Positions 9,126 to 59,228 of a DNA stretch of 64,000 nucleotides are shown one piece after another (the first letter of the stretch is position 1; every line of letters begins with the position of its first letter). The notes below the pieces were generated by a model. That model made no database searches. It was given only the letters and a program-made list of their open reading frames with translations, and had not been told where the DNA came from. The stretch lies in assembly GCA_965242525.1 (NCBI GenBank), contig OZ251459.1:3552001-3616000 (forward strand), in the 5' to 3' direction. Source of the stretch: an uncultured Candidatus Binatia bacterium. GTDB lineage: Bacteria; Desulfobacterota; Binatia; UBA9968; JAJDTQ01. Position numbers and translations under genes: made by a program.

Positions 9126-9200
9126 CCGTTCATCCTGAGCGTAGCGAAGCGAAGTCCTCCGTTCATCCTGAGCGTAGCGAAGCGAAGTCGAAGGACGCGC
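9126..9200 (+). repeat. Two tandem copies of dispersed REP-like motif A (CGTTCRTCCTGAGCGTAGCGAAGCGAAGTCGAAGGACGCG)
   Basis: Same motif at about 15 loci: 25685, 25980, 27896, 34865, 35683, 36148, 40173, 40274, 43438, 44549, 44809, 48045, 51357, 62722. Confidence 0.9.
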
Positions 9201-27526: not shown

Positions 27527-27865
27527 GGCGCTTTCGGAATTCCTGCGGGTTGTGGCACTCCCCTCCCATGCGATGAGGTCCGATTTCATCCTTGCTGCCT
27601 CGTTCGGGATGGATTCCCGCTTTCGCGGGAATGACGGGGGCGGGCGTCCGCAGGTGACAGGGCGGATGTCTGCGGGAATGACGGGGCGGGCATCCGCAGG
27701 AATGACGAGGCGGGCGTCTGCGGGAATGACGAGGGTGGGCGTCTGCGGGTGACGGGGCGGGGCGTCCGTGACGCCAAACCGCGGACGGCATGGTGGGAAT
27801 GGGAGGGAATCGACCTCATCGCGTGCGTCGGGAGCGCCACAACCCACACGAATCCCTGAAGCGCC
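27527..27865. mobile_element. Family C non-autonomous element with about 55-bp imperfect TIRs, enclosing palindrome B and about six 24-bp tandem units
   Basis: GGCGCTTTCGGAATTCCTGCGGGTTGTGGCACTCCC...GATGAGGTC is mirrored at about 27812-27865; related ends at 35778, 44798, 47827, 48028, 58778, 59228. Confidence 0.7.
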
Positions 27866-40136: not shown

Positions 40137-40398
40137 GGAACGGCTGACCAATGCCGGGCCTCCCTTGGGGAAGCGCGTCCTTCGACTCCGCTTCGCTCAG
40201 GATGAACGGGGATGGTTGTGCCGCTCGGGACGAATGGGGATGGGAACCTCCGAACAATCGGGACAGGGGCATGAGCGCGTCCTTCGACTTCGCTACGCTA
40301 CGCTCAGGACGAACGGAGGGACTTCGCTACGCTACGCTCGGGATGAACGGGATGGTTGTGCCGATCAGAACGAACGGGGATGGTCGTCCAGACGTTCC
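40137..40398. repeat. Cluster of family A MITE ends and REP motif A copies between convergent genes
   Basis: Left-type ends at 40137 and 40243, right end GTCGTCCAGACGTTCC at 40398; three motif A copies. Confidence 0.7.
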
Positions 40399-43390: not shown

Positions 43391-43533
43391 GGAAACTCGG
43401 AACAATTCCGGCTTGGACCCCCTCTCCGTGCGGGAAAGCGCGTCCTTCGACTTCGCTTCGCTACGCTCAGGATGAACGGGATTCTTCGCTTCGCTACGTT
43501 CAGGACGAACGGGGATGATCGTTCCGGGTTTCC
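43391..43533. mobile_element. Family A MITE (no clear TSD)
   Basis: GGAAACTCGGAACAATT / GATCGTTCCGGGTTTCC, two motif A copies. Confidence 0.7.
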
Positions 43534-44336: not shown

Positions 44337-44423
44337 GAACCGGCCCCTCCGTTTCCTCCCAGGATTGCAGGTACATTACTACAAACACCGCGGCAACTCA
44401 ACGGTGCAGCCGCCCACCCTCCG

Positions 44424-44690
44424 TCATTCCCGCGAAAGCAAGCGGGGGCGGGAATCCAGCCGTTCCATGGCGCCCTGCCTCACTGTGCATTAGGAACCTC
44501 TGGACAATCGAGACATCCAGGATGGATTCCCTCACCCTGACCCTATCTCCGTTCGTCCTGAGCGTAGCGAAGCGAAGTCGAAGGACGCGCTCATGCCCCC
44601 TGCCCTGATTGATCAGAGGTTTCATTACATGGATCGAGTGGACCGAGAAGGGCCATCCGCCGAGTGGATTCCCGCTTTCGCGGGAATGAC
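44424..44690. mobile_element. Palindrome-B-bracketed element with a GIY-YIG remnant, interrupted by a family A MITE (44493-44623, TSD ATTA)
   Basis: Inverted GTCATTCCC...GGGAATCCA pair; ATCGAGTGGACCGAGAAGGGCCATCC matches the 58.9-kb remnant. Confidence 0.75.
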
Positions 44691-44959
44691 GGGTGTGGGG
44701 GTTGCAGGAATGACGGGGCAGGCGTCTGCGGAGCAATGACTGCGTGACCCCTTTCGCTTCCCTTCCTCCTACCTGCCCACACAAAAGCCGGAAGAGCCCG
44801 GAGACCTCCCCGTTCGTCCTGAGCGTAGCGGAGCAAAGTCGAAGGACGCCCGGTTGACGCGCGAATCGGATTCTTGTTAAGAGGGTATCCGCGATCCGGG
44901 GCGTCGCGTCCTCGTGCCAGCCCGCGTCCCAACGCGCACAGGAAGAGAGGGTTACGCCA

Positions 44960-47826: not shown

Positions 47827-48086
47827 GGCGCTTCCGGAAATCGTGTGGGTTGCGACACCCATCATCCCGTCATTCCCGCAAAAGCCTCATCCCGTCATTC
47901 CCGCGAAAGCGGGAATCCATCCGGTTTCCTCGCTCTCGTTGTACAAACTTCTCATACAGTGCGCCCATGGGGTTTGCTCGCAGGGTCTGGATTCCGTGAA
48001 ACCCTGCCACACAGAAGCCGGGAGAGCTACTATGACCAACGACCCCGTTCGTCCTGAGCGTAGCGAAGCGAAGTCGAAGGGCGCGC
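47827..48086. mobile_element. Family C element with palindrome B and a GIY-YIG 3' remnant, followed by REP motif A
   Basis: GGCGCTTCCGGAAATCGTGTGGG left end; 47894-47948 matches 58854-58908. Confidence 0.65.
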
Positions 48087-58559: not shown

Positions 58560-58777
58560 GGCCGGACCGGGGCCGCGGCTCCCCTGCCTCCGGCGGCCCT
58601 GCGAGGGGGACCCACCGGGGCCGCGGTGCGCGCCCCTCGACCCAGGCACGGTCCTGAACCGGAAAAACTGGTTGCCAATCATCCTGAAAACTGGAAAGAT
58701 TCCTGTCCAGTTTCAGGGGAAATCGGTTATAATCCCGACCGGATCAGCACCATGCTCGAATCACTGAAGGAAATCAT

Positions 58778-59228
58778 GGCTCTTCAGGAATTCGTGTGGG
58801 TAAGGTAGGAGCGAAAGGGATCACGCTGCCGTTGCTCCACGGACGCCTACTCCGTCATTCCCGCGAAAGCGGGAATCCATCCAGTTTCATCGCTCTCTTT
58901 GTACAAACCTCTCCAGGTTGGATGACCCTTCTCGATCCACTCGATCTTCCTTGCCCGATGCCATTTCCTGACCGCCTTTCCTCTCTGGATAGCGCTTTCC
59001 ATGTGTTCAGGAACCTCGTATCCAATCAACCTGTGCACAGTGGCAGGGTGCCCTGGGGTTGAGTCGGAAGGATGGATTCCCGCTTTCGCGGGAATGACGG
59101 GGTGGGGCGTTTGCGACGCCAAACCGAGGACTTCAGGGTCGGAATGGGAGGAAAGCGGACTTCATCGCATGCGTGGGGAGTGTCACAACCCACTCAAAAG
59201 CAGGAAGATCCACATTATTCGAGACGCC
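58778..59228. mobile_element. Family C element enclosing an inverted palindrome B pair (58854-58879, 59073-59098)
   Basis: GGCTCTTCAGGAATTCGTGTGGG left end; 59116-59192 resembles 27771-27847. Confidence 0.7.
58892..59038 (-). pseudogene. C-terminal half of a GIY-YIG nuclease
   Basis: VHRLIGYEVPEHMESAIQRGKAVRKWHRARKIEWIEKGHPTWRGLY matches the LVYYE...AI.REK..K.W.R..KI.LIE..NP.W.DL pattern; GIY and YIG motifs are absent. Confidence 0.8.

Follow-up and report, generated by a model that had tools for sequence, protein, structure and literature searches.

Repetitive extragenic palindromic (REP) sequences and their REPIN forms are short hairpin repeats that occur in inverted doublets together with a single-copy, hairpin-flanked gene, RAYT, whose enzyme recognises single-stranded hairpins; we know of no REPIN that holds fragments of the RAYT gene. 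In Neisseria, the NIMEs are intergenic mosaic elements in which RS repeats are bounded by dRS3. A third arrangement of this kind is the Ssn/NTS system, in which a small GIY-YIG nuclease, Ssn, is paired with a hairpin, NTS, that contains the dRS3 core (Chenal et al. 2025; main text of PMC11893778). We analyzed a stretch of 64,000 nucleotides, referred to here as the window, from the genome of an uncultured Candidatus Binatia bacterium (GenBank assembly GCA_965242525.1, contig OZ251459.1; C1:3552001-3616000 of genome G000, which comprises 4.23 Mb in 7 contigs and is 98.96% complete). At 58854-59098 of the window two inverted NTS hairpins enclose a remnant of an ssn gene. The link between this palindrome and a GIY-YIG nuclease has been known since 2025; what is new here is the presence of dead, amplified copies of the NTS-ssn-NTS cassette as cargo of miniature inverted-repeat transposable elements (MITEs) of the ISL3 type. 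Carriage by these MITEs is probably the main route by which the cassettes, which we identify as dead Ssn, were multiplied in this genome. Relatives of G000 are designated below by G numbers and individual loci by L numbers.

According to the main text of PMC11893778, SsnA of N. meningitidis is a single-domain GIY-YIG protein of 94 amino acids that binds the NTS, CGTCATTCCCGCGMAVGCGGGAATCYRG, only as single-stranded DNA and cuts it a few bases upstream, on one strand only; the mutants Y6A, Y17A and E64A lose cutting. When a degenerate motif is used, the same text reports the hairpin on one side of 71% of homologues and on both sides of 42%, and 81% of genomes with more than 200 SRM carry the gene. 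Its Discussion notes that NTS-ssnA-NTS resembles an insertion sequence, draws the parallel with RAYT and REP, summarises the proposal that dRS3 repeats are recombination sites in Neisseria, and leaves open how NTS/dRS3-type hairpins multiply and whether NTS-ssn-NTS moves. The initial annotation of the window, which was made from its letters, offered the palindromes and the nuclease remnants as an under-described system, a claim that the publication of Ssn/NTS by Chenal et al. had already overtaken. We found no mention of decayed ssn copies or of carriage by ISL3 elements or MITEs in the main text and 12 of the 14 supplements of PMC11893778, and our searches of the literature beyond that paper turned up no account of decayed ssn copies or of MITEs with Ssn cassettes as cargo. 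For the ISL3 family, a passage of PMC7643977 gives 8 bp as the classical duplication length and ends of the form GG..TCCGGAATT...

The system in this genome shares with Ssn/NTS a 28-nt hairpin with the dRS3 core, a small single-domain GIY-YIG gene, the inverted NTS-gene-NTS layout, hundreds of hairpins per genome and an imperfect link between hairpin number and the gene. It differs in that most cassettes here are dead, internally deleted, present in many copies and placed within ISL3-type MITEs, with tandem arrays of 24-25-nt half-NTS units on their outer sides. Inverted hairpin doublets and one single-copy, hairpin-flanked enzyme gene are also features of REP/REPIN-RAYT, but the enzyme here is GIY-YIG rather than HUH/Y1, and the doublets enclose ssn fragments. 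The outer ends resemble those of ISL3 elements in having inverted repeats that start GGC(T/G)CTTC..GGAATT, 8-bp duplications and internally deleted copies, and in being found on transposase remnants as well; the cargo, a nuclease-plus-hairpin cassette with expandable half-hairpin arrays, is what sets them apart. As in NIMEs, a dRS3-type core bounds short mosaic repeat units in intergenic DNA. The organism group is a different one, however, and here recognisable gene fragments lie between the hairpins and the whole is bounded by transposon ends.

The complete element in the window extends over 58778-59211 (434 bp), with the following parts:

58778..58800, plus strand: left terminal inverted repeat of the ISL3-type MITE, GGCTCTTCAGGAATTCGTGTGGG, with the nhmmer terminus at 58778.
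58854..58879, plus strand: forward copy of the NTS hairpin, the 26-nt GTCATTCCCGCGAAAGCGGGAATCCA, with an 8-bp stem (ATTCCCGC/GCGGGAAT), a GAAA loop and the oriented flanks GTC..CCA.
58877..59074, minus strand: dead ssn (GIY-YIG) remnant, comprising residues ~46-99 and a short N-terminal piece.
59073..59098, minus strand: inverted copy of the NTS hairpin, the reverse complement of GTCATTCCCGCGAAAGCGGGAATCCA.
59189..59211, minus strand: right terminal inverted repeat of the ISL3-type MITE, reverse complement GGATCTTCCTGCTTTTGAGTGGG.

The window contains 5 copies of the 26-nt hairpin GTCATTCCCGCGAAAGCGGGAATCCA and the genome 227, and the 20-nt core has 5 exact matches in the window (27613, 44668, 47897, 58857 and 59076) compared with 0 in each of 100 shuffles. 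Both hairpins of 58854-59098 fold as single-stranded DNA at -9 kcal/mol (z -4.7 and -4.2). The NTS hairpin is unlikely to be an intrinsic terminator, the stem being followed by CCATCC and no T run. What the hairpin and its inverse enclose is, as the initial annotation had recognised, the C-terminal part of a GIY-YIG protein: by tblastn the remnant aligns with residues 46-99 of the intact protein encoded in the same genome, at 65% identity (E 7e-17), and a short piece of the ssn 5' end is present at ~59044-59074. A deletion has removed the YIG motif together with Arg28 and His32, both catalytic tyrosines are gone and the position of the catalytic Glu65 is occupied by Gly. Since the N-terminal half with the GIY and YIG motifs is missing, the remnant by itself matched no Pfam family, PF01541 included, at E values up to 10. 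The initial annotation had made its interpretation depend on a GIY-YIG profile; that profile does not recognise the remnant and does recognise its intact paralogue. Having lost the GIY/YIG half and the catalytic Glu, the copy at 58854-59098 would be unable to act, and we regard it, from its predicted residues, as catalytically dead.

A genome-wide Pfam search for GIY-YIG domains returned two small genes. One is an intact ssn (C1:3303655-3303966, minus strand, 104 aa), whose product matches PF01541 over residues 5-77 (E 1.5e-15; 57.6 bits, compared with a cut-off of 22.6 bits). The only other family listed for this protein is a weak T5orf172 match (E 0.028) that falls under its cut-off; an NCBIfam search of the protein returned no family, and a PDB sequence search gave just a weak match to the UPF0213 protein 1zg2 (E 0.048). 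The expectation that an intact gene would be flanked by the palindrome was borne out, as this sole intact homologue in the genome is bracketed on both sides in inverted orientation: a forward NTS is separated from the ATG by 12 nt, and the final 8 codons with the stop are overlapped by an inverted NTS. At 305 bp, the inner spacing of these two hairpins is the largest in the genome, and the locus is framed by ISL3-type ends (C1:3303429-3304226, 798 bp). Tyr7, Tyr18 and Glu65 are invariant among 8 homologues and are matched to Y6, Y17 and E64 of the Neisseria protein by an inferred offset of one residue, not by alignment. The ratio of nonsynonymous to synonymous substitution rates (dN/dS) is 0.05 for the intact gene against two congeners (with dS near saturation), 0.16 between the G017 and G015 genes, and 0.27 between the intact gene and an alphaproteobacterial relative; by these estimates the intact ssn is under purifying selection. 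One intact copy could serve all 227 hairpins in trans. We assign the system to Ssn/NTS, a small single-domain GIY-YIG nuclease of ~95-104 aa with its NTS hairpin, the nuclease activity being predicted by homology. The second small GIY-YIG locus (C1:3870142) was rejected as a member; it belongs to another subfamily, contains two TAG stops, has no NTS nearby and is associated with a different palindrome.

The ATTCCC-N8-GGGAAT core, which the initial annotation had likened to Neisseria dRS3, does agree with the dRS3 definition as quoted in the main text of PMC11893778. It is present in 227 copies, all on contig C1, and 224 of them have a GAAA/TTTC loop. The published NTS consensus CGTCATTCCCGCGMAVGCGGGAATCYRG is matched at the first 27 of 28 positions by 219 of the 227 hairpins and at all 28 by 60 of the 227. 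The local NTS fits the degenerate SRM pattern; the hairpin type of G014 and a second palindrome of this genome, both described below, do not. Neighbouring hairpins less than 1500 bp apart are arranged head-to-head in 54 cases, versus 6, 3 and 3 in the other orientations, and the inner spacing of the head-to-head pairs is 26-305 bp. A tblastn search with the intact protein gave 26 loci at E < 1e-3, every one of which has an exact NTS within 150 bp. When the interiors of the remaining 53 head-to-head pairs were compared with the intact cassette, 44 showed 20 nt or more of homology, 2 showed marginal homology and 7 none.

The deletions within the remnants are shared. When 8 remnants were aligned with the intact cassette, 6 proved to have one internal junction in common (..CCCTGCAT joined to CACTGTGC..), at which ~80 nt with the codons of the YIG motif, Arg28 and His32 are missing; the same junction sequence is found in the copy at 44424-44690. 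Three of these six remnants, including 58854-59098, have a second deletion near the 5' end in common. A further 8 copies have an identical short form of 119-120 bp, in which cassette positions 62-93 are joined to 299-354. Nested breakpoints shared at different chromosomal sites indicate that deleted forms were copied and that the dead cassettes were multiplied after dying. The earlier suggestion of deletion derivatives that spread is retained to this extent, the copies having been made after deletion; its other part, spread by the GIY-YIG enzyme, is not favored here, where the cassettes are found in ISL3-type MITEs.

The hairpins have remained more exact than the DNA they enclose, in keeping with the initial impression of near-invariant palindromes around a decaying coding remnant. 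At the 52 hairpin positions of the 26 protein-defined loci there are 33 exact 26-mers, 9 with one error, 3 with two, 4 with five or six, and 3 that are missing, part of the small error counts being edge effects of the search window. The interiors of seven sister copies, in comparison, diverge from their consensus by 7.6% (102/1334 cells), a level that predicts ~13% exact 26-mers; these seven were chosen via exact hairpins, and the count of 52 positions from protein-defined loci is the less biased of the two. Exact hairpins beside a drifting gene remnant point to selection or conversion on the hairpins themselves. Selection for Ssn binding, or conversion within the palindromes, could each explain the constancy.

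Evidence for the vehicle comes from the ends of the elements. In the typical element, an ISL3 end is followed by none to several units of 24-25 nt, an NTS, the ssn remnant, an inverted NTS, more units and the other ISL3 end. The end motif GGC(T/G)CTTC(C/A)GG..TT(T/C)GTGTGGG occurs 189 times in the genome when up to 5 mismatches are allowed, versus 3 times for a reversed control, and a profile search for the ISL3-type end gave 213 matches. An end of this type lies within 450 bp of 153 of the 227 NTS, whereas 200 random draws gave a mean of 9.2 and a maximum of 19; at 117 NTS it is on the outer side and in the right orientation. Both ends are present at 27 of the 54 hairpin pairs, one end at 13 and neither at 14. 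Inward-facing ends separated by less than 1500 bp form 57 pairs; an 8-bp target duplication, one mismatch being allowed, borders 16 of them, compared with 0/57 in each of three shifted controls. At least one hairpin is contained in 13 of these 16 duplication-flanked pairs, and 13 of the 45 NTS-bearing pairs are so flanked. Ends of the same kind also enclose a truncated ISL3 transposase gene (L042), and another such end is followed after 26 nt by the N-terminus of a frameshifted transposase (L041); the PF01610 E values of these two remnants are 8e-32 and 3e-35. For the window element, the limit of homology to G036 is precisely 58777/58778, the window sequence there being GGCTCTTCAGG. The exact pattern of an ISL3 end plus an NTS was found 19 times in G000 and 0 times in G001, G012, G015 and G017.

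The mechanism that we propose has the following steps. By homology with the protein of PMC11893778, live Ssn would bind the NTS hairpin only as single-stranded DNA and would cut a few bases upstream of it. In this lineage the cassette sits within a non-autonomous MITE of the ISL3 family, and we infer transposition in which an ISL3 DDE transposase, acting on the outer ends, would have copied the dead cassettes round the chromosome. The GIY-YIG enzyme would thus not have been the agent of their copying. Selection or conversion on the hairpins may then keep the NTS exact while the gene remnant drifts.

Comparison within the genus bears on this proposal. The protein search covered G000 and 23 relatives, four congeners lying outside it, and the end motif was counted in 28 genomes. 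At up to 2 mismatches, the ISL3-type end motif occurs 180 times in G000 and 167 times in G036; the counts for the remaining 26 genomes are 0-5. Ssn matches number 23 in G000 and 7, all of them fragments, in G036; G014, G015, G017, G031 and G039 have 1 each, G004 has 2 adjacent pieces of one broken gene, and 16 genomes have none. The hairpin counts (G031 630, G017 539, G001 441, G015 338, G012 310, G033 236, G000 224 and G039 212) do not follow the pattern of the ISL3 motif and the fragments; gene fragments therefore go with the MITE family and not with hairpin abundance. An intact-looking ssn is present in 5 of the 8 genomes with at least 200 hairpins versus 1 of the 16 with fewer, so that the correlation between palindrome number and gene presence proposed in the initial annotation exists but is imperfect. 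The intact-protein query found no match to this Ssn in the NTS-rich genomes G001, G012 and G033: apart from one weak match (E 6e-4), G001 yielded just a UvrC-type GIY-YIG, and the small GIY-YIG present in G012 is a different one.

Hairpin doublets of a simpler kind are found in G017 and G015, where ~100-bp doublets surround a ~50-bp palindromic core, with no gene fragment and no ISL3 end. NTS doublets present in hundreds of copies without ISL3 ends imply that NTS also have a second route of spread. In 5 of 8 such doublets (L051-L058) the two hairpins are bordered on the outside by 3-9 variable bases that are mutually complementary, though different from copy to copy; this is the region of the SsnA cut reported in the main text of PMC11893778. 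The ssn genes of G017 and G015 themselves (L006, L007) are the closest orthologues of the intact ssn, at 76-77% identity. They are not bracketed on the 5' side, where they directly follow a conserved gene in a position common to both genomes, and NTS-like copies occur downstream only; this ssn looks like a fixed, vertically inherited copy. In G014 and G004 (L009, L011) an Ssn homologue of 57-65% identity, broken in G004, has another hairpin, GTCACCCCGGCCTTGAGCCGGGGTCCAGG, at its flanks, so that within a single genus the enzyme and its hairpin vary in concert.

Homologues outside the genus were sought in 185,579 species genomes with a query alignment of 7 sequences, and 555 relatives were confirmed among 587 candidates. 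The best 80 of the 555 are from Chloroflexota, Planctomycetota, Nitrospira and several proteobacterial classes, with identities of up to 78%. When up to 4 mismatches in 25 nt are allowed, the hairpin is present on both sides at 28 of these 80 loci, upstream only at 11, downstream only at 10 and on neither side at 31. Flanking of homologues elsewhere, which the initial annotation had proposed to look for, is therefore seen at 49/80 of these best loci on at least one side. The closest Ssn relatives, 75-78% identical including the hairpin-encoded tail, are in assemblies of Chloroflexota/Dehalococcoidia, which suggests that the cassette has often been transferred between phyla. Some assemblies contain 2-3 intact ssn copies; in one Dehalococcoidia assembly (L067-L069) there are three intact cassettes with NTS and half-NTS arrays in common. 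Since the arrays also accompany these intact cassettes, they are a general feature of the cassette. Beside most NTS in the genome of the window, the tandem 24-25-nt units (GCGGGAATGACGGGGCGGGCGTCT) are solely on the outer, upstream side of the NTS, as at 27625-27766 and 47862-47910; each unit consists of the outer (GTCATTCCCGC) 5' half of the NTS plus a spacer, and the copy number differs among sister elements. Two of the Dehalococcoidia sister cassettes, L067 and L068, have right NTS with identical stems whose sole difference is an inverted hairpin loop (GGAA vs TTCC), a sign of inversion or processing within the palindrome.

A number of observations weigh against MITE carriage as the main route. 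The window element has no target duplication (GAAATCAT / ACATTATT), and neither do 3 other sister copies that keep both ends. No ISL3 end lies within 450 bp of 14 of the 54 hairpin pairs and 74 of the 227 NTS, and none within 500 bp of 8 of the 26 ssn loci. An intact ISL3 transposase was not seen in the genome, all 6 PF01610 matches being partial or interrupted. No clean pair of filled and empty sites was obtained for any NTS-bearing MITE, whether for the window copy, in 19.5 kb of the window or in 400 kb of G036. The latter two regions contain 32 repeat clusters, of which 17 had both flanks mapped and none gave a clean NTS-bearing pair, and are built as mosaics in which repeats are nested; around the window copy, the intergenic DNA cannot be aligned in G005 or G010, and G036 has ~2 kb of other genes at this position. 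The association within the genus represents one lineage, because G000 and G036 are each other's closest relatives, and G031, G017, G001 and G015 are rich in NTS (630, 539, 441 and 338) without the ISL3 motif. In G017 a ~270-bp segment that bears a doublet and has no ISL3 ends is absent from the same site in G015, G031, G001 and G039; this insertion is clear against all four congeners, with edges blurred by spacer divergence and a target duplication that cannot be read. Finally, the assignment to Ssn is an indirect one, based on domain, size, hairpins and residues.

Some of these points would be expected if NTS-ssn-NTS were an autonomous mobile element, with the GIY-YIG nuclease as its transposase or homing enzyme, the remnants as deletion derivatives of its own that are non-autonomous, and the ISL3 ends as a mere neighbor or frequent landing place, a hypothesis raised in the Discussion of PMC11893778. 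Conservation of the cassette as a unit across phyla, with this hairpin on both sides of 28/80 of the best homologues, whose identity reaches 78%, speaks for such an element, as do the several intact cassettes of some genomes (three in the Dehalococcoidia assembly), the NTS doublets at 338-630 copies in congeners without the ISL3 motif, the polymorphism among congeners of one doublet-bearing insertion without ISL3 ends, and the reversed orientation, with respect to the MITE ends, of the inter-NTS core in 2 of 8 aligned MITEs. A self-copying cassette should leave fragments, however, and these are found only where the ISL3 MITE family is present. G017, G015, G031 and G039, which have an intact ssn and hundreds of NTS, show one ssn match each and no fragments, and the three NTS-rich congeners G001, G012 and G033 have no match to this Ssn. 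In addition, the two NTS are on opposite strands, so that the published strand-specific cut would nick opposite strands at the two ends, unlike IS200/IS605 excision, which frees a single strand. For these reasons we consider autonomous movement an unlikely explanation of the dead copies. If it were true, the cassette would represent a class of prokaryotic transposable element outside all current insertion sequence families, with the NTS doublets as its non-autonomous offspring. The half-NTS arrays on the cut side of the hairpins would then be scars of repeated cleavage and repair, the copy-specific complementary bases outside the doublet hairpins (5/8 in G017/G015) would be scars of the same process, and the ISL3 MITE would be merely a second vehicle that captured a cassette.

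Spread without transposition, by homologous recombination or gene conversion between hairpin pairs that copies the intervening DNA, appears to us less probable still. Hairpins and adjoining arrays are near-identical at all loci and could act as homology arms; the inverted cores in 2/8 MITEs and the loop flip between sister copies of another genome point to recombination within palindromes, a role in keeping with the dRS3 recombination sites proposed for Neisseria (Discussion of PMC11893778). Yet 26 nt is short for RecA-dependent exchange, and recombination leaves unexplained both the 8-bp direct duplications outside the ISL3 ends and the absence of fragments from NTS-rich congeners that lack the MITE. 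Mobilisation of a classical REP/REPIN by a RAYT (HUH Y1) transposase, with the GIY-YIG gene as a bystander, has a negligible probability. Its appeal is the general look of short extragenic palindromes in inverted doublets, but no Y1_Tnp (PF01797) match was found in this 98.96%-complete genome by a search that was positive in 6 of 14 control genomes, and the gene between the palindromes is always GIY-YIG (26/26 loci). For this assembly, with 0 Y1_Tnp, the RAYT/IS200 explanation is refuted, and the initial annotation was correct to tie the palindrome to a small GIY-YIG nuclease in place of RAYT. Multiplication of the dead cassettes as cargo of ISL3-type MITEs is the reading that we prefer.

Other features in the window related to the cassette and its surroundings are:

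27527..27865: ISL3-type MITE with a single NTS (27610-27635, an inverted copy) and a 6-copy array of 24-nt half-NTS units at 27625-27766; the left end, 27527, was located visually and not by hidden Markov model.
44423..44798: second cassette of the same deletion class, with its left NTS broken by a 10-nt insertion (44423-44458), its right NTS at 44665-44690 and an ISL3-type end at 44798; a left ISL3-type end was not detected for this cassette.
44493..44623: unrelated MITE nested in the dead ssn, with ends GGAACCTCTGGACAATCG.., a second palindrome CCGTTCGTCCTGAGCG..CGAAGTCGAAGGACG and TTA on both sides.
47827..48028: ISL3-type MITE of 202 bp, with an NTS at 47894-47919 that is preceded by one half-NTS unit, an ssn core of the short form and a right NTS that is truncated.
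58752..58777, plus strand: start of an interrupted gene, its first 8 codons (MLESLKEI..), cut off by the left end of the MITE.

Three of these loci had been picked out in the initial annotation. The copy at 44424-44690 is a real cassette as claimed, with the correction that its left hairpin is interrupted by the 10-nt insertion. The fragment reported at 47894-47948 forms the beginning of a cassette of the short form, with a truncated hairpin on the right, and the palindrome at 27610-27635, described as lone, is a single hairpin followed by the 6-copy 24-nt array. The interrupted gene has a counterpart in G036 (C1:2166700-2170300), where the same start continues into an open reading frame of ~1.3 kb with a Walker-A-like GPRRSGKST motif. 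It is followed there by a small gene pair that resembles a nucleotidyltransferase-type toxin-antitoxin; this ~2 kb is missing from the genome of the window.

The nested MITE belongs to a family of ~130 bp with ends GGAACCTCTGRACAATCG and TTA flanks, and further copies are present in G000 near C1 3103400 and at 3816700-3817000. In one case such a ~130-bp MITE is located within an NTS hairpin loop. The second palindrome, CCGTTCGTCCTGAGCG..CGAAGTCGAAGGRCG, is represented in this genome by 559 copies of its 14-nt left arm; in the window it is found at 44541-44585 and 48040-48085, with arrays at 9126-9189, 40286-40350 and 43451-43513. In G009, G003 and G012 (L017, L018, L019 and L026) this palindrome brackets a different small GIY-YIG gene (MSFWVYILRCGDGSYYTGHTDD..), which in the genome of the window is the pseudogene at C1:3870142-3870351 with two TAG stops. 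A second pair of palindrome and GIY-YIG gene therefore exists in the genus.

One live gene, ~25 dead copies with nested deletions, a DDE-type vehicle, and sister species in which the hairpins have expanded with neither the vehicle nor gene fragments together amount to a natural dissection of the system. It separates three questions, which concern the agent that multiplies the gene, the agent that multiplies the hairpin and the force that keeps the hairpin exact. For annotation it counsels caution, in that hairpin pairs with pieces of a nuclease gene between them were not necessarily moved by that nuclease. The comparisons made here also identify species pairs in which gene spread, hairpin spread and hairpin constancy can each be tested apart.

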